Positions 11,786-58,202 are shown, numbered from the stretch's first letter. The stretch is DNA of 64,000 bases from a virus (IMGVR_UViG_3300045988_182554:1-64000); one strand, 5' to 3'. Notes: a model not told the origin generated them from the sequence alone. Translations and numbers: made by a program.

Positions 11786-11823
11786 CTCAAAAGCGCGGTT
11801 TTGTCCGCGCAGCTGCTCCAAAA

Positions 11824-11855
11824 GACAGCCTCCACGCGGCGAGCAGCGGGCAACG
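11824..11855 (+). repeat. conserved leader motif copy 1 (ACAGCCTCCACGCGGCG-N-GGGCAAC)
   Basis: One of three related 30-nt elements (with 55152 and 56961), each embedded in a local stem. Confidence 0.5.
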
Positions 11856-11904
11856 GGAGACAGTTCCGGCAAATTGTCTTTGAGACGGAAGGAGGAAGTG
11901 CCCT

Positions 11905-20822: not shown

Positions 20823-22919
20823 GTGATGCCGACCGGAACCGGCAAAACTATTGTGTTTGCAAGCATCGTGAACGACCAGGTGGCAAAGGGTGAACACGTT
20901 TTGATTCTTGCGCACCGGGAAGAGCTTTTACAGCAGGCAAGCGACAAGCTCAAGATGGTGACGGGGCTAGAGACCGCGTTAGAGAAAGCGCAAAGCTCGG
21001 CGCTCGATTCCGATAAGATGGTCGTGGTTGCCAGTGTTCAGACTCTCTCTAAGCAGAATCGGTTAATGAAGTATCCGCGTGATTATTTCGGGACTATCAT
21101 CATTGATGAAGCGCATCACACGGCAGCCAAAACTTACAAGGGAATTCTCGAGCATTTCATCGATGCCAAAGTGTTGGGCGTGACCGCAACACCCGACCGA
21201 AGCGACATGAAATCCCTATCTGATATCTTTGATAGTCTTGCATTTGAATATAAGCTCCCGGATGCAATTCGGGAAGGATATCTCTGCAAAATTAACACGA
21301 AGACAATTCCGGTCGAGGTAGACATCAGCAAGGTTCATATCAATGCCGGTGATTTCAGTGCTCAGGACCTCGGCAATGTTCTTGACCTGTATCTGGACAC
21401 GATTGCGGATGCCATTGTGCGAGAATGCCAGAACCGAAAGACTGTCATCTTTACGCCTCTGGTACGAATCAGCAAAAGACTGTGCAATATCCTCAATAAG
21501 CGAAACTTCAAGACCGCAGAAGTCAATGGCGCGTCTGCGGACCGGGAGGACGTTCTGAAAGGGTTTGACAATGGCGAGTACAAGGCGCTGACGAACGCGA
21601 TGCTCCTGACGGAAGGATGGGATTGCCCGACCGTTGACTGTATCATCTGCTTGCGTCCTACCAAGAGCCGTAGCCTGTATGCGCAGATTGTGGGACGCGG
21701 AACACGCCTATGTGAAGGGAAAAAGAATCTTCTCGTGCTGGATTTCCTGTGGCTGACAAAGAAACATAGTCTTTGCCATCCTGCTGATATTTTCTGTGAA
21801 GACCAGGAAGTGGCACAAAAGACCACCGATATGCTGGCGGATGCGGCACTCACCGGTTCGAATAGCCAGGAGAATTTCGGGAGTCCCGAATTGGGGCTGA
21901 TTGAGGCAATCGAGGAAGCACAGACTGAGCTGGACGAGGAAAAGCGGAAAGCACTGTGTGAACTCGAAAAGCAGGATACGATTCAGCGCAAGCTCAAGGC
22001 ACAGCGTCAAAAGCCGAGAGGATTGGTTGACCCGCTGCAGTATATCTTCAGCATCGAAGCGCCAGAACTCAACGATTATCAGCCGATGTTTGAGAATGAG
22101 AGGCAGGAGCCTTCCGATGACATCATCGATAGTATTTCGTGCTACGGCGTGAAAGGGGATGCCATCAAATCTCAGGGCCTTGCCGCTGCAATTCTCAAAC
22201 GACTCATTGCTCGCAGAGCCAGCGGAATGGCTACCCCGAAACAGATTCGGTGTCTTGAAAGTTTTGGGTTCGTCCATGTTGGGCGCTGGACATTGCGCTA
22301 TGCAAGCAGCTTTTTGGACATCATCAGTTCTCATGACTGGAAACTTCCGAATGGGTTCGACGCATCCACGCTGGACCCGGAAAAGAATACGGCAGAAGAC
22401 CTCGCCAAGCTGTATCCAGACTACAAGGAAGATGAGACGAAGAAAGCACCGCGTGGGGATGCTTTCATCTGCTGCTACTACGATGCAAGCTACAATTTGG
22501 CTCGCAAGAAGGTCTGCAACAGTGAAAAAGAAATGTTGAATCTGTATTATTCACTGTTCAATACTTGCGAAGCAAAGTACTTCTATTGTACGAAGGAAGC
22601 TGATGCCTGGATGGCAGAAAAGCAGAATCTAATTGCCAGAAAGACTGGAACACCGATTCCTGCCGCACAGCCGACTCAGGCAACACCCGCAGTACCTCCT
22701 CCCTTTGTCCCGACAGCTCCCGCTAAGAGCCACGAATATTATTGCTGCCTTGCACGCTGGGACGGGTCTTATATCGGCTATGAAACTTACAAGAGTGAGC
22801 AGGCGGCACAGAATGCCCGAAAGCAGATTGCCCGGCGCGGTGAGACGGCAGTGTATGCCACAGTAGAGGAAGCCGAAGCGTGGGTCGAACGGCAAAAGGC
22901 AGCGAGAACCAGGAGGTAA
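20823..22919 (+). CDS. SF2 DEAH-box helicase (type III restriction res-like), N-terminus separated by in-frame TAG
   Basis: MPTGTGKT Walker A, IIIDEAHH motif II, later helicase motifs; upstream in-frame 23-codon ORF (20724-20795) encodes the PRPYQ Q-motif and is followed by TAG. Confidence 0.7.
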   Translation: MMPTGTGKTIVFASIVNDQVAKGEHVLILAHREELLQQASDKLKMVTGLETALEKAQSSALDSDKMVVVASVQTLSKQNRLMKYPRDYFGTIIIDEAHHTAAKTYKGILEHFIDAKVLGVTATPDRSDMKSLSDIFDSLAFEYKLPDAIREGYLCKINTKTIPVEVDISKVHINAGDFSAQDLGNVLDLYLDTIADAIVRECQNRKTVIFTPLVRISKRLCNILNKRNFKTAEVNGASADREDVLKGFDNGEYKALTNAMLLTEGWDCPTVDCIICLRPTKSRSLYAQIVGRGTRLCEGKKNLLVLDFLWLTKKHSLCHPADIFCEDQEVAQKTTDMLADAALTGSNSQENFGSPELGLIEAIEEAQTELDEEKRKALCELEKQDTIQRKLKAQRQKPRGLVDPLQYIFSIEAPELNDYQPMFENERQEPSDDIIDSISCYGVKGDAIKSQGLAAAILKRLIARRASGMATPKQIRCLESFGFVHVGRWTLRYASSFLDIISSHDWKLPNGFDASTLDPEKNTAEDLAKLYPDYKEDETKKAPRGDAFICCYYDASYNLARKKVCNSEKEMLNLYYSLFNTCEAKYFYCTKEADAWMAEKQNLIARKTGTPIPAAQPTQATPAVPPPFVPTAPAKSHEYYCCLARWDGSYIGYETYKSEQAAQNARKQIARRGETAVYATVEEAEAWVERQKAARTRR

Positions 22920-23499: not shown

Positions 23500-23952
23500 A
23501 TGATTCGATTCAGAAAAGATACCCCTCGCTACTGGTTTATGAGTAACTATTATTCTTGCGAATTTGTGATGAATGGGATTCGTTACAAGAATGCCGAAGC
23601 AGCGTTTCAGAGCCACAAGGTTCCGCTGGAAGAGCGCAAACAATTTTCAGACATGCCTCCGGCAACGGCTAAGCATTTTGGCCGTCATGTGGCTTTCCCT
23701 GCCAACTGGGACGAAACCCGGGACGATGTAATGCGCCGCGTGGTGATGGCTAAATTCGAACAGAATAAAGACCTCAAGCAGCGTCTCCTCGAAACGGGAA
23801 CGCAGCCAATCGAGGAAGATACCACCAGTTGGCACGATAACTACTGGGGAAACTGCCATTGCCCGAAATGCCGGAACATCCCGGGTCAGAACCGGCTTGG
23901 GATTATTCTGATGGAAACGAGGGACAAGCTAAAAAAACAAACGAGTAAATAA
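23500..23952 (+). CDS. NADAR / YbiA-family (DUF1768) ADP-ribose-processing hydrolase
   Basis: Aligns with E. coli YbiA blocks: FMSNYY...AEAAFQSHKV, MAKFEQNKDLKQRLLETG, YWGN...GQNRLGIILMETRDKL. Confidence 0.85.
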   Translation: MIRFRKDTPRYWFMSNYYSCEFVMNGIRYKNAEAAFQSHKVPLEERKQFSDMPPATAKHFGRHVAFPANWDETRDDVMRRVVMAKFEQNKDLKQRLLETGTQPIEEDTTSWHDNYWGNCHCPKCRNIPGQNRLGIILMETRDKLKKQTSK

Positions 23953-23983
23953 TATTTGCGAGTCATTTCCTTTTTTAAGACAA

Positions 23984-24021
23984 AAGGCTGCCGCCCATCA
24001 CGGGTAGCAGCCTTCTTTTTT
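23984..24021. terminator. bidirectional rho-independent terminator between convergent genes
   Basis: GGCTGC...GCAGCC hairpin with T-runs on both strands. Confidence 0.55.
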
Positions 24022-24024
24022 TGT

Positions 24025-24477
24025 TTAGTGGGTGTCGTGGCACACATGCTCGAAATCGACGAGCAGCTCATTTGCTGCCTTTTGCACACATGCTATGGCC
24101 GGTTCATCCTTGACTTTTTCAGGTAAAAGGATAAGGCACGGACGGTTAATATCAGTTGAGCTGCTATAGTGGCAGGAGAGCAACTCTTCTCCAAATTCGT
24201 GATTAAGGGCGGAGGCAAGACATTTACCGAGCAAAGCACAATCCTCATCTTTCGCCAAAAGCCTATCCGCCTCATCGTAGTTAATGCGGCCGTTATCGAG
24301 ACATATACGGTCAAGAAATGCACGAACAGAAGCAGATGCGCTCATGGCATCTATAGTCTGACGATGATTCTCAAGAAAAATGCAAAATATCGGCTTTTCG
24401 ATTTCATCCAAGTAAAAGCCAAGGCCGGTAATACGGGTATTGGTATCGGTTTGTGTCATAGGAAACACCTCATCCAT
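24025..24477 (-). CDS. hypothetical protein
   Basis: 150 aa minus-strand ORF convergent with NADAR gene, sharing a bidirectional terminator. Confidence 0.5.
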   Translation of the reverse strand: MDEVFPMTQTDTNTRITGLGFYLDEIEKPIFCIFLENHRQTIDAMSASASVRAFLDRICLDNGRINYDEADRLLAKDEDCALLGKCLASALNHEFGEELLSCHYSSSTDINRPCLILLPEKVKDEPAIACVQKAANELLVDFEHVCHDTH

Positions 24478-24513
24478 TATGGCAGCGAATCACCTTGCCG
24501 CATTCAGAACAAC

Positions 24514-26400
24514 TCACTGAACAACTTCGCCAAGGTCATTTGCGTATTTCGGGTCACACATCATGAAATAGTTGACGGGGCCGTACTCCAGACCGAGCTC
24601 CTGCGCGTATGCCTTGATGACTTCCAGAACGTCCTCTTTCTTGAGATTATACTTGGAATGCAGACGGGCAAACTCTTTGTCAGAGACAGAAACGCAAGAG
24701 CAATTTTCTGCATCGGTTTCTTTGCTGCCCAGCATCCCGTCAAAGATGTCCTGTCCTGCACAGAGAGTCGTCTCATTGTTCATCGCATAGGCGATAACGG
24801 AAGCCTTACAGTCAAAGTCGCTGGCTTCCACAAGGAAATCCTCAGGGCGGCCGTGACGTTCAACAACGTTTTCATAGATGTCCCGGAGTTCGATAGGGGC
24901 AGAAGGAGCGGTCAGCGCTGCTTTATGAAGGCGCATGAATTCCACAAACTTTTCATCCGAGAGGGTGTCGGTATAAAAGCCGATGCCGGAAACGCGAACC
25001 TTCACTTCGCTGGCAAAGTAATCGTCAATTTTGGAGACGATTTTCTGCTGGACCCGCTTGTATGCTTCCTGAACATTGGAAGCCGTGTAAAATACCGGGA
25101 ACTTCATGATGTCGATTCCCTCCGGCAGACTCGCGTCATAGGCCGCATCAATGCCGCCTCGCAGCGCCGGAACCGCGTCATGCAGCTCTTTCACAGAAGA
25201 AATGTATCCGGTAATGTACAGCTCATCGTTTTTGCTGTAATGCCCGATAAGTCCCACATAGAGGGTCTGCATCAGCATCCGCTTGAAGCTGAACCAACAA
25301 AGACGAATGGGTAGAATGACATTAGCAGCCGTACCTTCCGCACGATAGGTGCCGGGGGCAGAGACCTTTTCCAGCAGAATCTGGTCGTTCTTGTCACCGT
25401 ATTTTTCCTTGAAAAGAGCTTGAAGAATTTCAGTGGACGAAAGAGGAGTGGACATTGGAATCGTTTCATTCAGAAAAGAGAGGAATGCATCCACGTTGTC
25501 TTTCTGCCATGCGTCATCAGACATGCTTGCACGCTGCATAGAGAGCTTGTCTTTCCCGTCGTCAGGCAAGGGCTCATACCCACAGGCGATACGAAGCTCG
25601 TTCTCCGTGACAGCATCCGTTGCGCTTGCAATTTTCTTGATGGTATTCTCGGTCGGCTGAGCTTTTGCGTTGCCATTCACGAGGCTGCTGATATACCCAC
25701 GAGTCAGTCCTGCCTGAAACGCAAACTTACCCTGTGTGCGGGTTCCGATGGCTTTTTTGACCAACGATGCCAGCCTTTGAAAGTCGGGCTCTTTGGGAAA
25801 GGTGGCCTCCGTATCTTTATTGCTGTTCTTTTCAAGTACCGACTTGTCCCAACCGGTGACAAGAGAATACCCAATATCCTTCAAGGATTGATAGGCAACC
25901 CCGTTCTGGTCAAGAGCCGGGGAGAATGTACCGCTGTTATCTTCCAGCTGCTCTACTGCCTCACGCACCATCCTTGCTTCGTTCATCAGGATGACGTCCG
26001 GGGCCTCAAGCCGGGCAAGACTCTTGTACCGACTATTGAGGCGCTCGACTCGTGCGGCCAATGCAGTGATGTCATCAAGTTGGTCCTTCGTTGCATGGGC
26101 AGAGATATCTGCACCAAGTTCAAAATGGTTCAGTGCAGGAATATCCACGCCTTTGCTCTTGGCGAATTCCACAATGGCTTCCGCGCCATAAAAACGTTTC
26201 TCATGGGCTGCGACAACTTTCGTTATCGTGTCGGCCGAGTTGTCCAGCTCAAGCACTTCACCTTTTCCGGCATCCTCGACATAACACCTGGCGTTGGTGA
26301 GAAAGCCTTTCAAAAAATCAGCATCCACATCCAGCTTCTTAGCGATGCCGGGCAGCTGCTTATAGAAAATCACGCGCGTGGCGAGGTTAACAGAAATCAT
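24514..26400 (-). CDS. large protein with internal XRE-type HTH
   Basis: 628 aa; HTH-like FAFQAGLTRGYISSLVNGNAKAQPTENTIKKIA; overlapping plus-strand ORFs read as antisense junk. Confidence 0.6.
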   Translation of the reverse strand: MISVNLATRVIFYKQLPGIAKKLDVDADFLKGFLTNARCYVEDAGKGEVLELDNSADTITKVVAAHEKRFYGAEAIVEFAKSKGVDIPALNHFELGADISAHATKDQLDDITALAARVERLNSRYKSLARLEAPDVILMNEARMVREAVEQLEDNSGTFSPALDQNGVAYQSLKDIGYSLVTGWDKSVLEKNSNKDTEATFPKEPDFQRLASLVKKAIGTRTQGKFAFQAGLTRGYISSLVNGNAKAQPTENTIKKIASATDAVTENELRIACGYEPLPDDGKDKLSMQRASMSDDAWQKDNVDAFLSFLNETIPMSTPLSSTEILQALFKEKYGDKNDQILLEKVSAPGTYRAEGTAANVILPIRLCWFSFKRMLMQTLYVGLIGHYSKNDELYITGYISSVKELHDAVPALRGGIDAAYDASLPEGIDIMKFPVFYTASNVQEAYKRVQQKIVSKIDDYFASEVKVRVSGIGFYTDTLSDEKFVEFMRLHKAALTAPSAPIELRDIYENVVERHGRPEDFLVEASDFDCKASVIAYAMNNETTLCAGQDIFDGMLGSKETDAENCSCVSVSDKEFARLHSKYNLKKEDVLEVIKAYAQELGLEYGPVNYFMMCDPKYANDLGEVVQ

Positions 26401-26614
26401 GGTGTACTCCTTTCAAATATGTCATTAGCTGTACAATGCTGTCATCTTCTGTAATTATAATAGCACATCCCGCACCAAAAAGCAAGCATGAATTTACAAA
26501 AAATGACAAGAAAATACACAAGATGACATATTTGGGCAAAGCAATTGATTCTTGAGCTTTCCGGCTTGGTGACGGAACAAGCTCTATGCGCCTTGTCTTT
26601 ACCACAGTTTTGCC

Positions 26615-26642
26615 TTGTGCATCCGTGCGAATTAAATACAAT
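26615..26642 (+). promoter_or_regulatory. promoter-operator copy 8 (TTGTGC-16-TACAAT)
   Basis: Spacer CGTGCGAATTAAA; upstream of acidic protein gene. Confidence 0.6.
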
Positions 26643-26691
26643 TAAAGATGTCGAAAGATAAAGCACAACACACAAAAAAGGAAATTTCACT

Positions 26692-27012
26692 ATGAACACC
26701 AGTATTTTGAAACTCGAAGCCACTGTAATCCGTCCCAAAGATTTTGACGAACTCGACGGCCTCGCCGCTTCCATCAGCTTCCCTGTCGAATACGATGATG
26801 AAGCAATTGGTGAGGCCCTGGGCGACCAGGACCTGATGGCCTATGTCGTCGGAGAGCTGCACGACCTCGTTGTCCGTATGCGTCCCGAATGGCTGGATAA
26901 TGAGGATACTAGCCTGACCATCAAGGCATTCCTGGACGAAGCTGAGTACCAGACGTTCAAGGGCCTTGTCGCGATGAAAGAAGACAGCTACACCTTTGTT
27001 ATTGAGGGCTAA
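26692..27012 (+). CDS. small acidic hypothetical protein
   Basis: 106 aa, strongly D/E-rich. Confidence 0.55.
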   Translation: MNTSILKLEATVIRPKDFDELDGLAASISFPVEYDDEAIGEALGDQDLMAYVVGELHDLVVRMRPEWLDNEDTSLTIKAFLDEAEYQTFKGLVAMKEDSYTFVIEG

Positions 27013-27137
27013 ACACCACAGAGCAAAAAGCAAACCCTGCCTGCAGTAAAATGCGGGTAGGACTTTTTTGTTTGCGTAGCTGCATCCTTTTGTCCACAGA
27101 AACCGTAGGTGCCAGGATGCGTAGCTGCCGACACGGC

Positions 27138-27165
27138 TTGACCTGATGTGCGAGGCTCGTACAAT
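27138..27165 (+). promoter_or_regulatory. promoter-operator copy 9 (TTGACC-16-TACAAT); no ORF before next promoter, possible short transcript
   Basis: Spacer TGTGCGAGGCTCG. Confidence 0.45.
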
Positions 27166-27243
27166 CAGATTTGTACGACAGATATCAAACGCAAAATATG
27201 GTTTACATTGAGCTGCTCAGTGGCCTTATGGCTGTTGGGCGGC

Positions 27244-27271
27244 TTTTTCTTTTGTGCGAGTTGCGTACAAT
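27244..27271 (+). promoter_or_regulatory. promoter-operator copy 10 (weak -35; TGTGCGAGTTGCG-TACAAT)
   Basis: Upstream of lipoprotein-macrodomain operon. Confidence 0.5.
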
Positions 27272-27296
27272 AAAAATCAAGCGGAGGAAACAACCA

Positions 27297-27703
27297 TGAA
27301 AAAATTTATTGGAATTGTTTTAGTGTTGTGCAGCTTGGCCTTGCCTTTAGCTGGCTGCAAAGAAGCCATCAGCACCGTGACTTGTAACACAATATCTGAA
27401 CTCGAAGATATTCCGGGTCAGATATTGTCTACACCGGAAAGCGCTGAAACGGAACCGGAATACAATTACATCCATTTTCGTTACGACAACATCTGGACTG
27501 TATCTGCCCTCGTGAACTACGAAATCGTGGACAACGGCCAAAACATAAAATTTGAAATCAACGATAGTCGCTATCGAGACAAGGTTTTTTATACCAGCAT
27601 GTCGAATGTAGAGCTCGTATACCGAGACGATAGCGTTGATTATGGCACGGACTACACCATTTATCCAGGGAATGCTTCGAAATTCGGAAAGGGTGGTAAG
27701 TAA
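27297..27703 (+). CDS. lipoprotein, hypothetical
   Basis: Signal peptide MKKFIGIVLVLCSLALPLAGC with lipobox. Confidence 0.6.
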
Positions 27704-27704
27704 G

Positions 27705-28181
27705 ATGGGTATTAAATTTATCGACGGCAATATTTTTTCACGACTTTCTGCGAGTAAGCCAACTTACATTTGCCAGCAAGTAAATTGCAAAGGTGTAATG
27801 GGAGCTGGACTTGCCATGCAAATTTGCATCCAATGGCCGGTGGTATATCGGCGCTATCTGGAGTTTTGCCATGGAAACGACGGCAACAAGCTCGGTACTT
27901 ATCAGGAGGTTCTGGTAGAACCGAAGCTGTATGTCGTGAATCTGTTCGGGCAGAATGGTTATAGCCGAGGTGAAAGGCAGACGAATTATGCTGCACTGGC
28001 GGCTGCGCTGTTCTCGTTTTTTAGAGACTGCGCTCAAAAGTATCAGGACGTAACTATCCGGTTGCCATATGGTTTAGGCTGCGGACTTGCCGGAGGCGAC
28101 TGGGACACGGTTCTGGACATCATCAGCGATGCAGCAAAAGCCTGGAATCTGAATGTTGAGATTTGGGAACTCCAGAAATAA
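27705..28181 (+). CDS. standalone macrodomain protein of DarG/TARG1 type (ADP-ribosyl hydrolase)
   Basis: YICQQVNCKGVMGAGLAMQI matches NC-GVMG-G-A-Q signature of TARG1/DarG macrodomains. Confidence 0.8.
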   Translation: MGIKFIDGNIFSRLSASKPTYICQQVNCKGVMGAGLAMQICIQWPVVYRRYLEFCHGNDGNKLGTYQEVLVEPKLYVVNLFGQNGYSRGERQTNYAALAAALFSFFRDCAQKYQDVTIRLPYGLGCGLAGGDWDTVLDIISDAAKAWNLNVEIWELQK

Positions 28182-28188
28182 TAGCAAT

Positions 28189-28229
28189 AAGACCTTTACC
28201 GAAATTCGGTAAGGGTCTTTCTTTTTTTG
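28189..28229 (+). terminator. rho-independent terminator
   Basis: AAGACCTTTACC-GAAATTC-GGTAAGGGTCTT followed by T9. Confidence 0.75.
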
Positions 28230-28351
28230 TAGGGATGCAAATATGTACAGATTGCAAACAAATGGCACCTGCCGTTGCAGAAAAAGCACGATAGTGAGAT
28301 AATATTAGTAAAGAAACAACAACATCATCAGTAAAGTGAGTAAAAAAGCCT

Positions 28352-29359
28352 ATGACAAACGCAGAACTAAAAGCAATCGTCCAGCGTGAGGAATACGATT
28401 TCCTGCGCACCAACAAACACTTGGGGAGCAACATTTTATTCCTAACGCTTAGCGGCAGTCATGCCTACGGAACCAACGTCGAAGGCTCCGATATCGATAT
28501 ACGTGGCGTGGCAGGCTCACCCGAAATCTTAGGGTTTAACCACTTCGAGCAGGCCATTGACAACCGGACAGATACAGTCATCTACGCTGTGAACAAGTTT
28601 GTCAGCTTGCTTGCGCAGGGTAATCCCAACATTATCGAACTTCTTGGCAATGACCCGGAGCTATATGTGAACATGACGCCGGAAGGCCAAATGCTGCTTG
28701 ACAATAGGGAACTGTTCTTGACTCGGCGCATTGCCTACAGCTATGGCGGCTTTGCAAACGACCAGCTCAGACGTTTGCAGATGGGTTTGCTTCGCAACAG
28801 AGTCTCGCCGGAGGCGCTCAAAAACAAATTCGAGAAGAGGAGTCTGGAACGGGCGATTACCGGATGGGGCAAGGATGACATTTTTGAAATCTCCATCAGT
28901 AAGGATACAGATGAAGAAGGCAAACATCCGCTCCTGATTTCTTGCAGCTTGAACGATTATCCAGTCACCTCTCTAAAGCCGCTGCTAAAGAGTCTGACTA
29001 CGACCATCGACCAGTATGAGCAGCCGCAGCATCCGAAAGCACAAAAAGATGCTGCCCACATCAACAAACACGCGATGCACATTGTGCGGTTGTACTACAC
29101 GGCGTTCGATATTCTGGAAAAAGGCGAGATTATCACTCGCCGAGACAAGGAACGCGAGGAACTGTTGGCGATTCGCAACGGCAAGTACCTGCGTGAAGAC
29201 GGGTCGTACGCACCCGAATTCTTTGAGTTTGTTGATGCGCTTGAAAAGAAATTTCAGGATGACGTGAGGAAAACCTCTCTTCCTGCTAAGCCTGACTTTG
29301 GAAAAATTGAGGAGCTTCTGGTGGAAATCAACAAGGAATATTTGCGGCGCGTCATGTAA
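28352..29359 (+). CDS. Pol-beta-superfamily nucleotidyltransferase-domain protein
   Basis: LTLSGSHAYGTNVEGSDIDIRGV (GS...SDxD NTase motif) plus about 230-aa helical C-terminal region. Confidence 0.7.
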   Translation: MTNAELKAIVQREEYDFLRTNKHLGSNILFLTLSGSHAYGTNVEGSDIDIRGVAGSPEILGFNHFEQAIDNRTDTVIYAVNKFVSLLAQGNPNIIELLGNDPELYVNMTPEGQMLLDNRELFLTRRIAYSYGGFANDQLRRLQMGLLRNRVSPEALKNKFEKRSLERAITGWGKDDIFEISISKDTDEEGKHPLLISCSLNDYPVTSLKPLLKSLTTTIDQYEQPQHPKAQKDAAHINKHAMHIVRLYYTAFDILEKGEIITRRDKEREELLAIRNGKYLREDGSYAPEFFEFVDALEKKFQDDVRKTSLPAKPDFGKIEELLVEINKEYLRRVM

Positions 29360-29419
29360 TTGACATGCTATCAGCAACAAAATACTGCTCGTCCATTTGA
29401 ATATGGGCAGCAATTTTTG

Positions 29420-29447
29420 TTGCAAAACCGTGCGAATTGAAGATAAT
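29420..29447 (+). promoter_or_regulatory. promoter-operator copy 11 (TTGCAA-16-GATAAT) driving a short noncoding unit
   Basis: Followed by about 170 nt without ORF and a terminator at 29590-29632. Confidence 0.55.
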
Positions 29448-29589
29448 GAAAATGAAGTTAACGGAAGCAAAGGTGATGCCGATGCAGTAAAAAATATAAA
29501 TAGTGCAAGATTGAAATGTCACAAAGGACGGCCGACCTGTTACCGGCTACCGGTTGAAATAGCAGTCCTTGAGGCTGCGTAAGATTATA

Positions 29590-29632
29590 AAGAACTCCTA
29601 TTACTTTTTTGAGTAGTGGGGGTTCTTTTTTC
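29590..29632 (+). terminator. terminator ending the short noncoding unit upstream of the cas operon
   Basis: Imperfect hairpin GAACTCCTATTAC...GTAGTGGGGGTTC with internal and trailing T-runs. Confidence 0.45.
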
Positions 29633-29787
29633 CTCTAAAAACGAAAGCATACGCCAAGGTCAATATCTGCAGCCTTAGAAACATGAAACTGTACATCGAC
29701 TGCGGCTTGATGTTTAACGATATATCATAAAGTAATGCTATCTTTCTGCCGGAGGGGGAGTCAAGCAATTAAAATTATAATAAACAC

Positions 29788-29815
29788 TTGCCAACTTGTG
29801 CGATTCGCATACAAT
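29788..29815 (+). promoter_or_regulatory. promoter-operator copy 12 (TTGCCA-16-TACAAT), perfect palindrome TGCGATTCGCA; cas operon promoter
   Basis: About 70 nt upstream of cas5c. Confidence 0.6.
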
Positions 29816-29883
29816 CAAGGATAGAGACAGATAAAAGCAAATAACAACCATCCGGCAACATAGATGACAAGTGGAGACGTAAA

Positions 29884-30570
29884 ATGATTGAGCAGAAAGA
29901 CAGTGAAATTTTGGAGCTCGCGGGGTTTGCAGACCGGAACAGAAAGGCCAGGGAGGTTCATTCAGAGCCTATTTTCGTACAGGTGAACAGCAAGCTGGCA
30001 GCCTACACGATACCAGGAATGCGTTCGGAAGGAACGACCTATGATGTTCCGACTTACTCGGCACTGAAAGGTGCAATGGATTCCATCTACAAACATGTCG
30101 GTATGGAAGCGATTCCGACGGCGGTGTACATTCACTCTCCTATAAAAAAGACACGTATCCTGCTGCGAAATATTGAGAACATCGAAGGAATGCGCTCCCG
30201 CGAATGCTTAACGGATGTTTGCTACACGGTCGTTGTACGAATCGTAAGAATGGATAACATGGCTTTAGAAAGCGACCTCACAGTGCAGTACAGGAATTTC
30301 TTAGAGTATGCTTCCGACAGCTGTGGGATGGGATATCCGTATCTTGGCGTGATGGAAACACCCATGTATTTCCATCCTGTAACGGAAGCTGAAATCCTTC
30401 CGACGCTGCCCATCACATCTGATTTGTGCAACATGCCTCTGACGCCGGATTATACGAACGAATTTGAACCGGATTTGGTTTGCAGGCATCTTCGCATCGA
30501 GAATGGTGTCATCGATTTTACGAAGGGGGAGTATTTTCGCTGTTATGGATATTCTGAATGCGCTGGTTAA
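29884..30570 (+). CDS. cas5c: Cas5c (Cas5d) type I-C Cascade subunit
   Basis: TYDVPTYSALKGAMDSIYKH ... RNIEN resembles the Cas5c core SYDV-TPSAARGILEAIYWKP ... RRNEV; precedes and overlaps cas8c. Confidence 0.8.
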   Translation: MIEQKDSEILELAGFADRNRKAREVHSEPIFVQVNSKLAAYTIPGMRSEGTTYDVPTYSALKGAMDSIYKHVGMEAIPTAVYIHSPIKKTRILLRNIENIEGMRSRECLTDVCYTVVVRIVRMDNMALESDLTVQYRNFLEYASDSCGMGYPYLGVMETPMYFHPVTEAEILPTLPITSDLCNMPLTPDYTNEFEPDLVCRHLRIENGVIDFTKGEYFRCYGYSECAG

Positions 30571-32491
30571 GCACTATGATGCGATGGCAGCAGCTGGAAA
30601 TGCAACGCCTTTCGGCTGGACACACAAGTTTGCTCAATATGCCGTCGAACTAAACGATGACGGAGAAATCGATAGGATTTTCGCTCTCGGTGATTTATCC
30701 GATAAAAAGAACAAAGGCGAGGAATTCAAGATGCCAACACGCAGGCCACGGTCTGGCAAGCTGCCGATTCCGTATGTGTTCTGTGATGATGCGGAACATC
30801 TTCTCGGCAAAGTCGGTGAAGCGAGCAATCTTGTTCGATACACTATGATGCGCGACGCAGTCTTTATGCTGCGTGACCTGTTGGGACATTCTAAAGCCTT
30901 AGATGTCGTCTACAAGTTCTACGAAACGTGGGACCCAGAAAAGGCGCTTGACAATAAATGTGTCAGCGACGTAATGGAGGCGAAAGGCCAGGAAAAGAAA
31001 ACCTTTATCCTGTTCTACAATGGCGTTCCAGTTTTTGATGATGAGACATTTCGCAAAAGCTATGCGGCGATTGTCAATAAATATGGGGAAATGCCGATTG
31101 ATACACTCAAGGGCGGTGAAATTGCTCTGTTGCCGGAACCTATCAAGATTCGAAGCATGATAAGCGGCAATATCGGGTTTAAGGCTCGCTTGTTTCGAGC
31201 CATCACGGCATGGGGAAACAAAAAGAATGGCCCTGTCACAAACACTCTTTTGTCCAACAACAAAGCAAACACCGAGTATTTCGGACGTCAGCAGGGCAAC
31301 GCCATCCCCATCACAATGCAAGATGAACATAAGATTTACGAAGCGGCTACAGATTTGCTCGGCTCCAAACATCGGTTTCCGGTTCCGGCCACTTCACAGT
31401 CTCTTTATTCAAAGAATCAAATTATCTGGTCGGATGATATGCCAACAAAGCTGGAAGACGCGGTCATTGACCTATGCTGTTGCCGCAGTGATAAAGCTAA
31501 AACTATCTCTCAGGCAAATGAATCAGGTTCTGAAACCACTATCAGAATCCTTGAAAAAACAAAACTCTATCAGGGACGAATCACGGTTCTTTCGGACATT
31601 GAAAAGAACTTAGTCGTCAACGTCTGGAATCTTGATATGAATAATAAGGGATGTTCTGCATCCAGCTTTACGCAGATGACGCTTGACGAGCTGCTTGGAA
31701 ACTTTGCCAAGCATTACACTGACATGGAAATTGACCGAAGCCAGACTTGCCGAGATGCGGATGGAACCAGCCGAGATTTTGCAAGAGCCATCAACATCTA
31801 CAACTCACTTTTCGCCAAAAACAGTGATGGAAGCACGAGTTCTTTCAACAACGCTCTTTGGAAACAACTGAGTATCAGCATTTATTCCGGAACAAAGTAT
31901 CCGGAGCAAGTCCTTTCCCTGGCACTGCTTCGGTCCTGCCGTTTGCTTCAGCAAAATAAGAAAGGCAAAGAAAATCGCATCACGGCGTCTTTGGCCGGTA
32001 TCACAAAAGCGTTCTTAATTCGCAATTACGGAGAGAATATGACGATGGGACTCAACTCAAACAACACCAGCCCTGCTTATATCACAGGACGAATCTTCGC
32101 ACATATGGAAAGTGCGCAGAGAAAGATTGACCCCAACAACCAAACCACTTACGCTAAACGGTTCTTTGAGCGAGTTATGATGAACCCGGCCAAAACCATG
32201 CCGGAACTTCACAAGAGTTTCCTTCTTTTGAAGAACAAGGCTAAAGCAAATGGCATGAGAGGTCTTTATAATTCCAGCGACAAGAAAATTATGGCTCTTA
32301 TCGATATGCTGGATGGCAACTATCCCGACCATCTATCCGAAAAGCAAAAAGGTGAATATCTCGTCGGATACTATCAGCAGCGAAGCGCAAACATCAAGGA
32401 TGCCGAGGAGAAGAAAAACCGGAAAGCCGCCAAAATTGAAACTAATAATACGGATACTGCGACAACCGTTGCAACACAAAAGGAGAAGTAA
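30545..32491 (+). CDS. cas8c: Cas8c (Csd1) type I-C large subunit
   Basis: MDILNALVKHYDAMAAAG N-terminus (Csd1 MILQAL..YY pattern); about 650 aa; start overlaps cas5c by 26 nt. Confidence 0.85.
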   Translation: MDILNALVKHYDAMAAAGNATPFGWTHKFAQYAVELNDDGEIDRIFALGDLSDKKNKGEEFKMPTRRPRSGKLPIPYVFCDDAEHLLGKVGEASNLVRYTMMRDAVFMLRDLLGHSKALDVVYKFYETWDPEKALDNKCVSDVMEAKGQEKKTFILFYNGVPVFDDETFRKSYAAIVNKYGEMPIDTLKGGEIALLPEPIKIRSMISGNIGFKARLFRAITAWGNKKNGPVTNTLLSNNKANTEYFGRQQGNAIPITMQDEHKIYEAATDLLGSKHRFPVPATSQSLYSKNQIIWSDDMPTKLEDAVIDLCCCRSDKAKTISQANESGSETTIRILEKTKLYQGRITVLSDIEKNLVVNVWNLDMNNKGCSASSFTQMTLDELLGNFAKHYTDMEIDRSQTCRDADGTSRDFARAINIYNSLFAKNSDGSTSSFNNALWKQLSISIYSGTKYPEQVLSLALLRSCRLLQQNKKGKENRITASLAGITKAFLIRNYGENMTMGLNSNNTSPAYITGRIFAHMESAQRKIDPNNQTTYAKRFFERVMMNPAKTMPELHKSFLLLKNKAKANGMRGLYNSSDKKIMALIDMLDGNYPDHLSEKQKGEYLVGYYQQRSANIKDAEEKKNRKAAKIETNNTDTATTVATQKEK

Positions 32492-32493
32492 CA

Positions 32494-33456
32494 ATGTCTG
32501 AACTCGTTAAGAATCCTATCACCATTGTTCTAGCGTTTGATGCGCAGAACTGTAATCCCAATGGGGACCCCGACAACGACAACAACCCGCGTCAGTTTGA
32601 GGATGGAATCGGGTACATGTCGTCCGAAAGCATCAAATATAAGATTCGCAGCTACATCCGTGACAAGGTCTTGTTTGACGGTCTGGAAAAGAACAGCCAT
32701 GCACTATATTGCAGCCCCGATACTTTTTCCATTGAGCGCAGCGTTAAAGAGTGCCTGGAGCCTATCATCGGCAAAAAAACCAAAGGCATCCCCGATGACC
32801 AGCAGCTGGAGGCTTATAAGGAGCTGTGCCGGTACTACTATGATACTCGCATGTTTGGGCTTGTGAATACGAGTTATTCCAACTGCAGCCTTCTCAACCG
32901 CATCAAGGGTGCCTGCCAGGTATCTATGCCGATGTCCTATGACCCTATCGAAATCATCCCGATGACGATTACTCGCTGCTGCGTTGCTTCCGATGCTGAA
33001 CGCAAAGGCGAAGATAAAGGCGCCAAGAAGGGCGTCAGTATCGACGAAAGCGACGATGGAGCCGAAAAGAAGACGAAAGACCACATGATAGGCCGTCGAA
33101 GCATTATCAGATATGGGCTGTATCACATGAGCATTCAAATCAACAGTGCAATGGCACAGCGTAACGGTGTTACGATGGATGACGTTAATTTGTTGATTGA
33201 TGCGCTGCAGCATATGTTCGAGGAAGATATGAGCTCCAGCAGAGCCCTAACGCTGCGTAAGTTGTTTGTCGTTGAACACACCAAACCGATGGGAAATGCT
33301 TATCGGGACACCATTGAGCGGGCACTGGCGGCTCGACTGAAGCAACCTAATGATGCACCTACATCTTATGAGGATTACGAGGTGACTTATCACCGCGAAA
33401 TGCTGCCTGATGAGGTCAAGGTGACTGAGTATAATTATAACAGTCAAAGCGTTTGA
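32494..33456 (+). CDS. cas7c: Cas7c (Csd2) type I-C backbone subunit
   Basis: AFDAQNCNPNGDPDNDN hallmark NPNGDP motif; AAGGAGAAG RBS. Confidence 0.9.
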   Translation: MSELVKNPITIVLAFDAQNCNPNGDPDNDNNPRQFEDGIGYMSSESIKYKIRSYIRDKVLFDGLEKNSHALYCSPDTFSIERSVKECLEPIIGKKTKGIPDDQQLEAYKELCRYYYDTRMFGLVNTSYSNCSLLNRIKGACQVSMPMSYDPIEIIPMTITRCCVASDAERKGEDKGAKKGVSIDESDDGAEKKTKDHMIGRRSIIRYGLYHMSIQINSAMAQRNGVTMDDVNLLIDALQHMFEEDMSSSRALTLRKLFVVEHTKPMGNAYRDTIERALAARLKQPNDAPTSYEDYEVTYHREMLPDEVKVTEYNYNSQSV

Positions 33457-33753
33457 CAAAAACTAATAATTGCTGGTCAACAAAACTGTATAAGATTGAA
33501 AACACAATAGTCTGCCTCTTGTTAATACGTTGCAAGTGAGAACCTGCGGGACTACAAAAGTGATGCACTATGCCACATATGATTGAAACGATATTTTGCT
33601 ATGGTGCGGAAATGCAGCGGCTGCAGGTAACACAACTGCCGTAAGAAAGGCTACAAAGCGGCCCATGAGGTCGCGTAAGATTATGCGCCCATCTGCAAAC
33701 GCGGGTGGACGTTCTTTTTTTGCCAAAAATAAAAATAAAACGTGATAAAAACC

Positions 33754-33781
33754 TTGCACATCTGTGCGAATCAGATATAAT
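33754..33781 (+). promoter_or_regulatory. promoter-operator copy 13 (TTGCAC-16-TATAAT)
   Basis: Upstream of UvrD-like helicase gene. Confidence 0.6.
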
Positions 33782-33864
33782 AGCCCTAATAAGATAAAAA
33801 TTGTGCCCTGACGGCATCTGAATTGGATGCTGCCGGGGCATTTTTGTTGTTAGGAGATATAGCT

Positions 33865-37417: not shown

Positions 37418-37563
37418 GTTCGTTGTCGATACTTCCGGTTCAATGCGCGGAGAACCTATCAATGCACTGAAAACGGCCATGATTAACACCATCCAGTATA
37501 TCAATGACGACAACTATATCGGCATCCTCGATGAGTTGCTGGATATTCTTAACGATAAATAAT
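37418..37563 (+). pseudogene. truncated VWA-domain gene fragment (near-copy of 11266-11392)
   Basis: About 120 bp about 85% identical to the MIDAS region of the VWA gene; encodes FVVDTSGSMRGEPINALKTAMINTIQYINDDNYIGI with no start codon. Confidence 0.7.
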
Positions 37564-37619
37564 TGATTTTTACACCTCCGATGTTACGGCATCGGGGGTT
37601 TTGTTTTTGGGAGGATACT

Positions 37620-39440
37620 ATGAGTAAGGGAATGCGTACAGAGGACGAGGTTCGTGACAGTGCCAAGCTGGTTCTTGGCTTTGATAAGACCGAAGATGGA
37701 GCGCAGCAGGGGACTGGGCAAATCACTACCTTCAATCAGTTGGGATTCCGTGGCTGTAATGATAAGCCGGATGGCTGGTATCTGCCGGATGACGCCAGCA
37801 AACCCGCCATCATTCTGGAGACGAAATCAGAAGCAGAAGGTGTTTCCAAGGAAAAGCATGTCAAGGAACTGTTCAAGAATATCGATGTTGTTGCCAAGAA
37901 ATACTCCAAGACCATCGGTATTCTTTATAGCGGCAGTGCTATCCGCGTATTCAGAAACAAAATCGAGCTGTCTGATGCGTCCAAGCACTTGGAAAACAAG
38001 GACTACTATATCCGCCTGTGTACGAGCCAGAAACTCGATAACAACTACATCTTCGAAATCACGCAGAAAATCAACAACAGCCTGCATTTCAAGTTCGGTA
38101 TGACGGACCTGCAGGACCGGATGATTTTCACGGCTTGTGCCCTTGTCGCCCAGCGCTACAACCCTCAGAACGGTCTTCAAAAACTGAAAGACATGGATTA
38201 CAGCACCTTCCATAACTGGATTTACAGTGCCCTGTCTAAGGCTCTGGAAGATGATAAGAAGCAGAATAGCAAGCTGGATGTACTCTTGGAGGAGTATGCC
38301 TCTGTCCGTATGTCTATTACGGAGAATCAGGAAGCCATCAACGATTTCATCGACAATGTCTGCCAGATTGCCGACCTCGTCAATTCCGATAACTGGAATG
38401 GTGAGGATGTCATGGCAATCTTCTTCAATGAATTCAACCGCTACCGTGGCAAGGCTCAGGCGGGACAGGTGTTTACCCCTGACCATATTGCATCCTTTAT
38501 GTACCGACTCATTGATGTGAATATGAATGACCGGGTTCTGGATGCCACCTGTGGTTCCGGCACCTTCCTCGTGAAGAGCATGTGCAATATGATTCGTGAG
38601 GCAGGCGGCAGCAATACCAGCAAGGCAAAGCAAATCAAGTCTGAGCAGTTGTTCGGCATCGAGATGTACCGGAAAGTCTACGCTTTGGCTTGTGCAAACA
38701 TGATGATTCACAAGGACGGTAAGACCAACCTTGTGCAGATGGATGCCACTTCGGCTGAGGCGACTGAATGGATTCGGAAACAAAAAATCACGAAGGCCCT
38801 GATGAATCCGCCTTACGAGAGACGATACGGTTGTGCAACAATCGTTGCTAATGTGTTGGATAGCGTTCCTGCAGGTACGAAGTGTGCCTTCATTCTCCCG
38901 GATAAGAAGATGGAGAAGGAATCCAAGTTGAAAGCCTTGCTGGAACGCCATACTCTGACCACCATCATCAAGCTGCCTGAGAACCTTTTCTTCGGTCTGG
39001 GCGTTACTACTTCTATCTTCATCTTCGAGACTGGCAAGCCTCAGAATGGGCGCAACATCAAGGGCTACTATGTGGCTGATGACGGTCTGGAGACTGTCAA
39101 GAACAAGGGTCGGCAGGATGTACACGACAAGTGGCCTGCGCTGGAAGATTACTGGGTTAAGGCGATTCAGGATGACAACGATGACCGCTACAATACCCGC
39201 CAGCTTATCAATCCGGCTGAACACCTGTCCTATCAGATGCCGGAGAAACCCTTTGAGTTGTACGAGGAGGATTTCATCAAGACCGTGATGGACTACGAAA
39301 TGTACAAGCGTGGCATCAACGCCAAGGAGTTCGGGGACAAACTGCTGCAGAAGGTGCTCTATGGTTCGACTGTGACCGGCACTGAGGAAGGCACGAACAT
39401 TCTGGTGGGGAAAGGAGAAAGCAATAATGGGGAAGATTGA
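37620..39440 (+). CDS. BcgI-A-like type IIB restriction-modification enzyme (PD-ExK nuclease + N6-adenine methyltransferase)
   Basis: N-terminal LPDD...IILETK (PD-ExK); DATCGSGTFL (motif I); LMNPPYE (motif IV). Confidence 0.8.
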   Translation: MSKGMRTEDEVRDSAKLVLGFDKTEDGAQQGTGQITTFNQLGFRGCNDKPDGWYLPDDASKPAIILETKSEAEGVSKEKHVKELFKNIDVVAKKYSKTIGILYSGSAIRVFRNKIELSDASKHLENKDYYIRLCTSQKLDNNYIFEITQKINNSLHFKFGMTDLQDRMIFTACALVAQRYNPQNGLQKLKDMDYSTFHNWIYSALSKALEDDKKQNSKLDVLLEEYASVRMSITENQEAINDFIDNVCQIADLVNSDNWNGEDVMAIFFNEFNRYRGKAQAGQVFTPDHIASFMYRLIDVNMNDRVLDATCGSGTFLVKSMCNMIREAGGSNTSKAKQIKSEQLFGIEMYRKVYALACANMMIHKDGKTNLVQMDATSAEATEWIRKQKITKALMNPPYERRYGCATIVANVLDSVPAGTKCAFILPDKKMEKESKLKALLERHTLTTIIKLPENLFFGLGVTTSIFIFETGKPQNGRNIKGYYVADDGLETVKNKGRQDVHDKWPALEDYWVKAIQDDNDDRYNTRQLINPAEHLSYQMPEKPFELYEEDFIKTVMDYEMYKRGINAKEFGDKLLQKVLYGSTVTGTEEGTNILVGKGESNNGED

Positions 39441-40494
39441 TACTTCCGGGTGGAAGGAATTCAAACTCGGATATATTATGGTTGAAAATAAGAAGCAAGG
39501 CCATGGTCTTTTCGAAATTGTCAATTCAGTTGCTTATCATGGCAAAGATGTTACCGAGACGGATTCGGATGATGGAATCAATTATATTACTCGGAGCAAG
39601 TTCAATAATGGATTAAAGGCAAGGGTCGTTTGCTTGGATAAATTCAAGGTGAATCCTGCAGGAACCATTTCTTTCGGCGCAGAAAACGCAGATTTTTTCT
39701 ACCAAACGGAGCCTTATATCACTGGCAACAAAATGTATTATATCAACACGACTGCATTATCGGAGCGTGCTTGCCGTTTCCTTAAAAGCATTTTGGAAGC
39801 GACATTTACAGCCAACTATTCTTTCTCCGACGGTATGATTCCGGCCAGAATTTATGATGAGTGCATCAAACTTCCCGCCACCCCTAACGGAGCCCCCGAT
39901 TGGGCTTATATGGAATCCTACATGGCAAACCTTGAAACCAAAGTCGCCGAGTTGCTGACCCTGCTACAGGCTGCGAAGGATGCGGAGAAGAAAAAGGTGG
40001 ATACGAGGGAGTGGGGAGAGTTCCGGGTGGGGGAATTGTTTGACGCGGAACGCGGAAAGGTGAAGAATATTCAGCCCTTAACCCCCGGAGCGACTCCAAT
40101 CATCGCAGCAGGCGCTTACAACCAAGGTATTGCTGGGATGTACGAGATTGACAGTGCCTATAAAAATCGAATTACCGTATCTTGTAATGGGGCAGGTTGT
40201 GGCAGTACGTTCTATCATCCATACGAGTTCAATGTGAATGGCGATGCTATTACACTTATTGAAAAGAAGTGTATGCCTGACAGAGCAAAGCAGTTTGTTG
40301 CATGCATCTTAAATGCCACTTTTACGCGCAAATTCAGTTATGAAGAAAAATGTTCCCCTCAAAAGGCTCTGGCTGAAGTAATGCGGTTGCCCATTGACAA
40401 GACCGGTCAGCCTGACTGGGCGTATATGGAGGAGTATATGAGGAAGGTGGAGAGAAAAACCGAAGGCATGCTCAATCAATTTGTCTCAACATAA
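39427..40494 (+). CDS. BcgI-B-like specificity (HsdS-like) subunit
   Basis: Two TRD halves each followed by repeated block ..PDWAYME(S/E)YM..; overlaps the A-subunit stop. Confidence 0.75.
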   Translation: MGKIDTSGWKEFKLGYIMVENKKQGHGLFEIVNSVAYHGKDVTETDSDDGINYITRSKFNNGLKARVVCLDKFKVNPAGTISFGAENADFFYQTEPYITGNKMYYINTTALSERACRFLKSILEATFTANYSFSDGMIPARIYDECIKLPATPNGAPDWAYMESYMANLETKVAELLTLLQAAKDAEKKKVDTREWGEFRVGELFDAERGKVKNIQPLTPGATPIIAAGAYNQGIAGMYEIDSAYKNRITVSCNGAGCGSTFYHPYEFNVNGDAITLIEKKCMPDRAKQFVACILNATFTRKFSYEEKCSPQKALAEVMRLPIDKTGQPDWAYMEEYMRKVERKTEGMLNQFVST

Positions 40495-54959: not shown

Positions 54960-55151
54960 ACAATTGTTCTCAGGAAGAGGAACGGCTCCTGAGACATCAA
55001 GGTTTTCCTTTCCCCAATCTTGGTCGCATGGCTTCATTTGAGCTGACACAGGTGAAGCGTGAAAATCATCCGTTTCATAGTAATATCCTTCCTTTCATAC
55101 CTCTTTATTTCCCATTTGGCGCGGGTAACTCCGCGCCAGCCGTCCAAGCAA

Positions 55152-55183
55152 ACAGCCTCCACGCGGCGGACGGTGGGCAACAG
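55152..55183 (+). repeat. conserved leader motif copy 2
   Basis: ACAGCCTCCACGCGGCGGACGGTGGGCAACAG, preceded by the same GCGCGG...CCGCGC hairpin as copy 1. Confidence 0.5.
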
Positions 55184-55223
55184 ATGTTTCCGTGTTCCGG
55201 GCATCTGGCTAATGTTTGTATTT

Positions 55224-56195: not shown

Positions 56196-56233
56196 TCACC
56201 AAATTAAGCGATAATAGGAAGGAGATGAATTCT

Positions 56234-56617: not shown

Positions 56618-56647
56618 CGCTATTTGGCGGGCTTGACCCGCCATCAT

Positions 56648-58153: not shown

Positions 58154-58202
58154 TTTGCCATCCTCTAACTAACGGTAATCGATAGTTTTTCCTCCTTGCT
58201 GT

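Follow-up and report, generated by a model that had tools for sequence, protein, structure and literature searches.

The analysed stretch of DNA (IMGVR_UViG_3300045988_182554:1-64000; 64,000 nucleotides (nt), referred to as the window) originates from a large (huge) gut phage. It carries a type I-C CRISPR locus, consisting of the genes cas5c, cas8c and cas7c and of two short flanking units, unit 1 upstream and unit 2 downstream (Table 1). The predicted presence of the three genes was confirmed by Pfam and PADLOC matches, and the window holds the type I-C effector set (Cas5c, Cas8c/Csd1 and Cas7c/Csd2) without cas6. The proteins are divergent, since all three scored under the NCBIfam I-C equivalog cut-offs. 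The other components of the system were missing, as had been claimed in the original prediction. No cas3 was found in the 64 kb by tblastn with three Cas3 proteins from related phages, and no Cas1, Cas2, Cas3 or Cas4 with bacterial I-C queries (the accompanying hidden Markov model scan did not cover every open reading frame). Neither of two repeat tools detected a regular CRISPR array in the window, the I-C repeat pieces being the handles of the two units and the terminal hairpin repeats. The superfamily 2 (SF2) helicase at 20823-22919 was considered as Cas3 and rejected; both helicases of the window are not Cas3. The UvrD-like helicase was rejected as a Cas3 substitute because cas3-bearing relatives (L018; related loci are designated by L numbers) have this helicase too.

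Table 1. Positions of the cas locus features and of other features in the window (aa, amino acids).
Feature	Position	Strand	Remarks
Unit 1 promoter (TTGCAA, 16 nt, GATAAT)	29420-29447	+	recurrent phage family TTGC..GTGCGAAT..A(T/C)AAT; repeat families D2, D5; promoter scan
Unit 1 leader: Shine-Dalgarno-like AAGGTGA, then mini-ORF ATG CAG TAA	29470-29490	+	kept in L004 and L007 leaders
Unit 1 5' handle AAGATTGAAAT, 11 nt	29507-29517	+	sole remnant of first repeat; identical in L004
Unit 1 single spacer, 41 nt	29518-29558	+	guide sequence GTCACAAAGGACGG..
Unit 1 terminal repeat	29559-29588	+	degenerate 3' handle GTAAGATTAT
Unit 1 terminal hairpin GCAGUC-CUUGA-GGCUGC	29562-29578	+	intact
Unit 1 intrinsic terminator	29589-29635	+	18-pair stem + T-run; called at 29589-29628 by the scan
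Relic of Cas3 extreme C-terminus (..KVNICSLRNMKLYIDCGLMFNDIS*)	29632-29729	+	~31 codons + stop; between unit 1 terminator and cas promoter
cas operon promoter (TTGCCA, 16 nt, TACAAT)	29788-29815	+	100% conserved in L004
cas5c, 228 aa	29884-30570	+	Pfam Cas_Cas5d 3.6e-6; PADLOC Cas5c 4.7e-18
cas8c, 648 aa	30545-32491	+	Pfam Cas_Csd1 5.9e-68; PADLOC Cas8c 2.7e-65
cas7c, 320 aa	32494-33456	+	Pfam Cas_Cas7 7.2e-53; PADLOC Cas7c 1.7e-45
Handle-like remnant of decayed repeat TATAAGATTGAAAA	33488-33501	+	
Unit 2 5' handle ATGATTGAAAC	33579-33589	+	repeat body upstream degenerate, without hairpin
Unit 2 segment from handle to terminal repeat	33590-33653	+	guide sequence GATATTTTGCTATGG..; repeat debris GCAGCGGCTGC, GCCGTAAGAAAGG
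Unit 2 terminal repeat	33654-33684	+	degenerate 3' handle GTAAGATTAT
Unit 2 terminal hairpin GCGGCC-CAUGA-GGUCGC	33658-33674	+	
Terminator of unit 2 and cas operon	33685-33716	+	33689-33708 + T-run; homologous to L017 array terminator
22 tRNA genes and tmRNA	55.2-62.4 kb (55224-62427)		
tmRNA	59973-60372		tag DNNRYASPIAA
Promoter motif, ~16 sites	e.g. 7172, 9213, 13417, 16004, 17215, 20364		
Promoter motif, further example sites	27253, 29429, 29797, 33763, 45155, 49866		
HDV-like ribozyme of Faecalibacterium prausnitzii (Rfam RF02682)	11812-11881, 55139-55219		two matches, above threshold

Both flanks had been described as bounded by a promoter and a terminator. This was found for unit 1, whereas in the case of unit 2 a terminator was present and the promoter scan predicted no promoter. 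Unit 1 is the upstream array, shrunk to one promoter- and terminator-bounded guide module. Upstream of its handle lies an AT-rich stretch with TATAAA and no hairpin, and the spacer exceeds those of the relatives (34-36 nt) by about 6 nt. The motif GGTTGAAAT at 29553, 44 nt after the first handle, which had been pointed out in the original prediction, is not conserved and is no second handle: L004 has GGTTAGAAT there, and the motif lies at the 3' end of the spacer, adjoining the terminal repeat. A promoter within the degenerate first repeat (TATAAA, 29495-29500), from which the RNA would start at the handle, was not called by the promoter scan and is a conjecture only. With degenerate repeats around one spacer and a predicted promoter and terminator of its own, unit 1 has the architecture of the Cracr and CreA/CreR RNAs. 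The Rfam search of both units returned no meaningful family.

The sister lineage L004/L042, with cas genes 88-90% identical to those of the window, carries a matching unit 1. The identity of unit 1 between the window and L004 was 83.6%. The difference of about 16% is lower than that of the synonymous sites of the neighbouring genes, 32-52% (synonymous differences per synonymous site, Sd/S), and unit 1 is therefore more conserved than these sites. The handle (11/11) and the first 14 spacer nucleotides (14/14), which are proximal to the protospacer-adjacent motif (PAM), were identical. The spacer differences between the window and L004/L042 were located mostly at positions 15-22 and 39-40, and one compensatory change, from A-U to G-C, was observed in the terminal stem. 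Unit 1 was rejected as a small protein gene, and is regarded as noncoding, due to single-base indels between the window and L004. The spacer substitutions among three alleles fell mostly on third codon positions in the frame VTKDGRPVTGY, which hints that the spacer was derived from a coding gene, although the scans gave no gene as its source.

In unit 2, the stretch from the handle to the hairpin (33590-33657) was 68 nt long, whereas at this place L004 carries one clean spacer with a length of about 35 nt. Unit 2 looks like a decayed remnant of the downstream array, not a clean guide, and is probably carried on the cas transcript. The GATTGAAAY motifs of the original prediction were located at 29509-29517 and 33581-33589 as claimed and belong to the related phages' CRISPR repeat GTAGCAGCCnnnnnGGCTGCGTAAGATTGAAAT; the motif alone was not above chance, with 4 occurrences in the window compared to 2.2 expected. 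The handle-like remnant at 33488-33501 is a third such site, beyond these two. GCGTAAGATTAT, also a part of the relatives' repeat, was found exactly twice in the window (29577-29588 and 33673-33684) with 0.23 expected. The claim that GAGG(C/T)(T/C)GCGTAAGATTAT precedes a hairpin and a T-run in both flanks was borne out, these elements being terminal repeats and terminators. The motif itself is the 3' arm of the terminal-repeat hairpin together with the degenerate handle, because the L017 array ends in a homologous terminal repeat and terminator. The suggested folding of the units gave a divided result: the terminal repeats of the window fold into the repeat hairpin of the relatives, whereas the first repeats of units 1 and 2 form no hairpin. 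The 6-bp repeat stem covaries, with 92.9% of the cells paired and 5 of the 6 pairs changed on both sides, which was equalled by none of 500 shuffles.

The phage homologues of the window Cas7c were 99, 90, 79, 68, 64 and 47% identical to it, followed by the bacterial I-C Cas7 proteins with about 31-33%. In the relatives with 47-68% Cas7 identity, cas3 is situated directly upstream of cas5c, and its product is a genuine Cas3c that includes an HD domain (E 7.6e-182). In the relatives with 47% and 64% identity, the RlaP gene stands farther upstream, beyond cas3, and the window likewise has an upstream RlaP gene. True arrays of the relatives contain I-C-like repeats, such as GTTGCATCCCGTAAGGGATGCGTAAGATTGAAAT and GTAGCAGCCnnnnnGGCTGCGTAAGATTGAAAT, for comparison with the Clostridiales I-C repeat GTCGCACCCCTCGCGGGGTGCGTGGGTTGAAAT. 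In L017 (79% Cas7 identity) an array of seven repeats stands right after cas7c, in the position of unit 2, and is followed by the same UvrD-like helicase. The ancestral layout was RlaP, mini-array(s), cas3, cas5c, cas8c, cas7c, a second array (present in some) and the UvrD-like helicase, without adaptation genes. In no relative were such genes called in the flanking regions of about 8 kb to each side of the locus, as far as the contig extends.

A remnant of Cas3 was detected in the window itself. It aligns with the last 26-31 Cas3 residues of L018, L006 and L008 (tblastn, E 0.001-0.016 in a search space of 311 nt), and the relic of L004/L042 corresponds to residues 652-708 (E 1e-17 to 1e-20). 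Due to these relics, cas3 must once have been present and then deleted in the window lineage. Clade-type Cas3 was found on 16 IMG/VR contigs in a profile-seeded scan, none of which is among the six contigs (47-161 kb) with the window-type locus. The locus is derived from a type I-C system of huge phages by deletion of cas3 and collapse of the arrays. The original alternative of array relics is thereby correct as to descent, which is documented by the L017 array, the cas3 of the relatives and the Cas3 relic, whereas a simply dead locus does not agree with the intact genes, the selection described below and unit 1.

Several other arrangements were observed in the Cas3-bearing relatives. In those with about 68% Cas7 identity (L046:3500-6850; L044, L045, L047-L049), at least six mini-array modules stand in tandem upstream of cas3. 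Every module has its own promoter and a leader of roughly 200 nt; 2-6 repeats follow, and the module closes with a constant end, consisting of a degenerate repeat, and with a terminator. The constant end is homologous to the unit 1 end of the window, and the first repeat of several modules lacks a hairpin, like that of unit 1. The leaders of these modules contain GGAGG and ATG NNN TAT TAG, the counterpart of ATG CAG TAA in the window, L004 and L007. In the window and L004, the mini-ORF precedes the first handle by some 15-20 nt, and the distance is larger in L007 and most L046-type modules. In L006/L007:1800-2742 (64% Cas7 identity) an AcrVA2-like gene (PF26125) is found just upstream of cas3, and a TnpB/Cas12f-like gene and an AAA ATPase gene just downstream of cas7c.

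The three cas genes were full-length, without frameshifts or stops, in at least 9 independent contigs. The identities across these contigs were 99.2-100% for cas8c and cas7c and 98.3-100% for cas5c, and 92-97% for the flanking RlaP and helicase genes. Between the window and the cas3-less L004/L042, the ratio of nonsynonymous to synonymous divergence (dN/dS) of the cas genes was 0.09-0.12 at dS values of 0.24-0.52, similar to that of RlaP. Within the clade which has the exact cas3-less layout of the window, the corresponding polymorphism ratio (pN/pS) was 0.22-0.33 (31-34 substitutions). The genes of the effector complex (Cascade) are under purifying selection, and the intact genes, the low dN/dS and pN/pS values and the conservation of unit 1 argue for its continued function after the loss of cas3.

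The pre-CRISPR RNA endonuclease site of Cas5c consists of Y, K and H in Bacillus halodurans Cas5d. The Cas5c of the window keeps the Tyr of the SIY motif. At the position of the K/H dyad, it has V-Q and L004 has E-Q, compared to K-H (3KG4, 3VZI, 8DEX) and K-F (8G9T) in the solved structures. The array-bearing relatives L006, L008 and L018 have K-H, K-Y and W-H, respectively. Since the catalytic residues differ among Cas5c proteins, the activity is not readable from sequence. In cas8c, an in-frame internal start (GGAGAG at 32030-32035 and ATG at 32039-32041) could give a Cas11-like product of 150 amino acids. The starting Met is not kept as Met in the relatives, which have I or L at this column and Val two residues downstream.

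The target searches with the window guides were negative. No protospacer for either unit, full or seed-only, was found in the window, in the DNA of related phages (0.7 Mb), in GenBank phages, IMG/VR, GTDB or metagenomes. The spacers of the window, the upstream fragment and the L004 spacers had no target in the window with up to 30% mismatches, blastn-short against all loci gave no target for the window guides, and a match of PAM and seed was not present in the window or the 0.7 Mb of related loci, including their promoters. The match in GenBank phages was at chance level (E = 0.5). Pattern scans of IMG/VR and a codon-degenerate scan for VTKDGRPVTGY resulted only in the units themselves. Ten GTDB matches were rejected as unrelated genes of Acidobacteria, Planctomycetes and Actinobacteria coding for VTKDGRxxTG, with 24-31 of 41 positions matching. 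Each of the 14 metagenome matches corresponded to the unit itself; one lay on a contig of 267 kb, which argues against a full-match self-target on that contig. The PAM with the 14-nt seed gave 13 matches in IMG/VR compared to about 10 by chance (a rough estimate) and was left unsupported; all 13 were inside coding genes, those of terminase and GroEL, and none extended past nucleotide 15. The original proposal of atypical guides is partly supported, unit 1 being conserved and unit 2 looking decayed; the silencing, homing or conflict function attached to it was not demonstrated, with the target searches negative.

The spacers of the relatives did have matches. Those of L045:5986 and L047:5494 match L052:15268-15300 and L053:15191-15223 at 31 of 33 positions, with an adjacent TTC PAM. 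The spacer of L046:6579, present also in L049, matches the cas3 promoter/5' untranslated region of the rivals L018:185-211 and L045:6957-6983 at 27 of 27 positions beside TTC, and the carrier's own cas3 promoter differs at this site. Since the spacers match other huge phages beside the TTC PAM, the clade employs type I-C against competing phages, including a rival's CRISPR system. The use of CRISPR by huge phages against competing phages has been reported (PMC7162821). The different spacers of L017:2247-2280 and L051:6872-6897 (79% and 47% Cas7 identity) share the 17 nt CCGATGCGCGGGTCATA, which are overlapping protospacers in one target.

The most probable function of the locus is that of an RNA-guided binder without cleavage and of a silencer, for which the chances are about even in our judgement. 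In the proposed mechanism, Cas5c, Cas7c and Cas8c, perhaps with the Cas11-like product, would assemble on the unit 1 RNA. The 11-nt handle would be bound by Cas5c, the 41-nt guide would be covered by Cas7, and the terminal hairpin would form the 3' end. The 5' end of the guide would be made by host RNases or by transcription initiation and probably not by Cas5c cleavage, as is suggested, short of proof, by the first repeat without a hairpin and by Cas5c without the K/H dyad. A TTC-flanked target would be bound and, without Cas3, not degraded, and the complex, with its fixed guide, would silence a gene of the host or of a rival phage. For phage CRISPR systems without a nuclease, repression of transcription has been proposed (PMC7162821). 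More doubtful is the stronger version of this reading, in which the interference system was turned into a fixed-guide nuclease-free regulator (natural CRISPR interference, CRISPRi), selected after the cas3 deletion, with the guide freed of Cas5c processing. Within this version, the cas3 deletion itself may have served to evade rivals' spacers directed against cas3 promoters.

A number of results weigh against a silencer. The visible 64 kb are a part of a genome of at least 150-270 kb, and a cas3 may lie elsewhere or a host Cas3 may be used. The guides have no protospacer in the collections searched, and unit 2 is degenerate. The two Cas3 relics do not overlap, and the cas3 loss may have preceded the split of the window and L004 or may have occurred in parallel. 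The system is dispensable and lies in a variable island, because close relatives have deletions truncating the operon: L002/L016 do not contain the region corresponding to 24810-32105 of the window and L003 that of 23940-29986, and L013 has also lost a part of the operon by deletion or replacement. A cassette coding for a GIY-YIG homing endonuclease, for an N6 DNA methylase and for a specificity subunit takes the place of window positions 26613-33209 in L005/L015 (L005:1482-6044), where some 250 nt from the end of cas7c, together with unit 2, are all that is left.

According to a rival explanation, the locus was recently disabled and is decaying, the Cascade being without function since the loss of cas3 and the intact genes and the conserved unit 1 resulting from recent ancestry or recombination and not from selection. 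The Cas3 relic, the collapsed arrays, the degenerate unit 2, the operon deletions and replacements in the siblings (L002/L016, L003, L005/L015, L013) and the missing target for any window spacer are in agreement with it. A cas cassette which is 99-100% identical where the flanks differ by 3-8% fits recent spread. Against it stand the low dN/dS between two cas3-less lineages over a dS of 0.24-0.52, the pN/pS in the clade of identical cas3-less layout, the absence of frameshifts and stops from every full-length copy, and a unit 1 which exceeds synonymous sites in conservation and has a compensatory stem change. Decay is considered rather unlikely. The purifying selection is compatible with any working role, including degradation of DNA via a Cas3 supplied in trans by a host I-C system or from elsewhere in the phage genome, of which 64 kb are covered. 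The phage repeat handle (..GATTGAAAT) is very near to the bacterial I-C handle, and phages without interference genes have been proposed to use host Cas proteins (PMC7162821). The recruitment of a host Cas3 is uncertain, however, with the phage Cas8c only 22-23% identical to bacterial Cas8c, and a Cas3 of the phage itself is disfavoured by its absence from the six window-type contigs, while it is present on 16 others, and by the nature of both window helicases, which makes this explanation improbable.

The silencer reading was compared also with the possibility that the units are anti-CRISPR RNAs, similar to Cracr or Racr, and that the units or the Cascade hinder a host I-C system by sequestering Cas proteins or by seed-matched repression of a cas promoter. 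Viral CRISPR RNA-like regulatory RNAs exist, type I-C included (10.1101/2024.10.29.618823; PMC10651486). The order of degenerate repeat, spacer and degenerate repeat with an own promoter and terminator resembles these RNAs, the strict conservation of the spacer is limited to the 14 PAM-proximal nucleotides, an AcrVA2-like gene is found beside the locus in relatives, and the spacer of one relative is aimed at a rival cas3 promoter. In contrast, no promoter with a PAM and seed match was found in the window or the 0.7 Mb of related loci, and the number of IMG/VR seed matches was near to that expected by chance, all being intragenic and none passing nucleotide 15. The units are also situated in a cas locus with its own Cascade, whereas the Cracr and Racr RNAs that have been described take over Cas proteins of the host. 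This explanation was judged very improbable.

Canonical type I-C systems (Dvulg; Clostridiales L061, Desulfovibrio vulgaris, Bacillus halodurans) have the same order of cas5c, cas8c and cas7c without cas6 and the same repeat plan, GT-stem-loop-stem-GCGTnnATTGAAAT; the spacers of about 35 nt and the TTC PAM at the protospacers of the relatives are likewise similar. In contrast, the window has only a relic of cas3 and no cas4, cas1 or cas2, its arrays are reduced to one clean guide and debris, its Cas5c does not have the K/H dyad, and its proteins are about 22-32% identical to the bacterial ones, under the NCBIfam equivalog cut-offs. The locus resembles the huge-phage I-C variants of Al-Shayeb et al. 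2020 (PMC7162821), which also reside in huge phages with transfer RNA (tRNA) genes, have compact arrays and no adaptation module, encode a Cas5d-like protein with altered active-site residues and an adjacent helicase gene, and in some cases have no recognisable Cas3; repression without cleavage was proposed there too. Compared to these variants, the loss of cas3 in the window is documented by the relic and the cas3-bearing relatives, the neighbouring UvrD-like helicase is no Cas3 replacement as L018 has it beside cas3, and the array is a single guide conserved across lineages.

CreA/CreR and Cracr share with unit 1 a mini-array of degenerate repeats with one spacer, own promoter and terminator, and the binding of Cascade without cleavage, which is proposed for the window. 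However, no partly matching promoter target was found for the window in the window itself, the 0.7 Mb of related loci or IMG/VR; this phage brings its own Cascade, and its unit was left over from a true array and not copied from a host regulator. Racrs are guide-less repeats that stand singly, away from cas genes, whereas the units of the window hold a spacer-length segment beside their own cas genes. Type IV-A (DinG) and the transposon-encoded I-F3, I-B and V-K systems are similar in having a Cascade-type effector without Cas3 and adaptation on a mobile element, few fixed guides and a function by binding, again as proposed for the window. The likeness to CRISPR-associated transposons that was seen originally was not confirmed, with no transposition genes seen nearby. 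The window has no DinG, TniQ or Tns genes in the vicinity, its proteins are I-C and not type IV or I-F, and it represents a recent loss inside a Cas3-bearing clade and no established separate subtype.

Type I-C variants of huge phages which have compact arrays and no adaptation genes, and in some cases no Cas3, are already known, with repression proposed for them (PMC7162821), and so are viral mini-array regulators (10.1101/2024.10.29.618823). If the Cascade of the window works, it would be a compact natural silencer of three genes and one guide, and a small I-C binder with a processing-independent guide would be useful for engineering. The cas3-bearing, relic-bearing and truncated sister genomes allow the origin of the silencer from a cutting system to be traced stepwise, and this series shows how nuclease-less CRISPR systems emerge on mobile elements. 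If the locus is merely decaying, it is an ordinary remnant. The relatives present a phage-versus-phage CRISPR conflict aimed at a rival cas3 promoter and unusual tandem mini-arrays.

The proteins of the window match phage proteins via PHROG. DNA nearly identical to that of the window was found on IMG/VR contigs (47-161 kb) and metagenome contigs (up to 267 kb in length), and no DNA similar to the window in the GenBank phages searched. The neighbours of the cas locus are the RlaP nucleotidyltransferase, the UvrD-like helicase, methyltransferases and a restriction-like helicase. The island of the cas locus (window 20823-22919 and 37563-40494) contains the restriction-like SF2 helicase, which matches PADLOC type IV/type I restriction endonuclease models, as well as an N6 methyltransferase and a specificity subunit of type I. 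In several close relatives (L032:4549-5893, L034, L035 and L036), an insertion of 1.3 kb was observed at the very start of the gene for the UvrD-like helicase (window 33857/33862); it may represent a mobile intron or homing element. The promoter motif TTGC..(T/C)GTGCGAAT..A(T/C)AAT recurs in 9-16 copies in the window, depending on the repeat family, and stands before many genes, including unit 1, the cas operon and the helicase gene.

The tRNA genes are accompanied by a transfer-messenger RNA (tmRNA; Table 1), and one tRNA-like gene (56648-56723) has an unusual anticodon loop. One of the two matches to the hepatitis delta virus (HDV)-like ribozyme RF02682 lies directly upstream of the first tRNA, and two more degenerate copies related to it (repeat family D9) were found at 55366 and 56945. 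A direct repeat of 109 nt with 92% identity occurs in two copies 26 kb apart, at 11266-11374 and 37418-37526.

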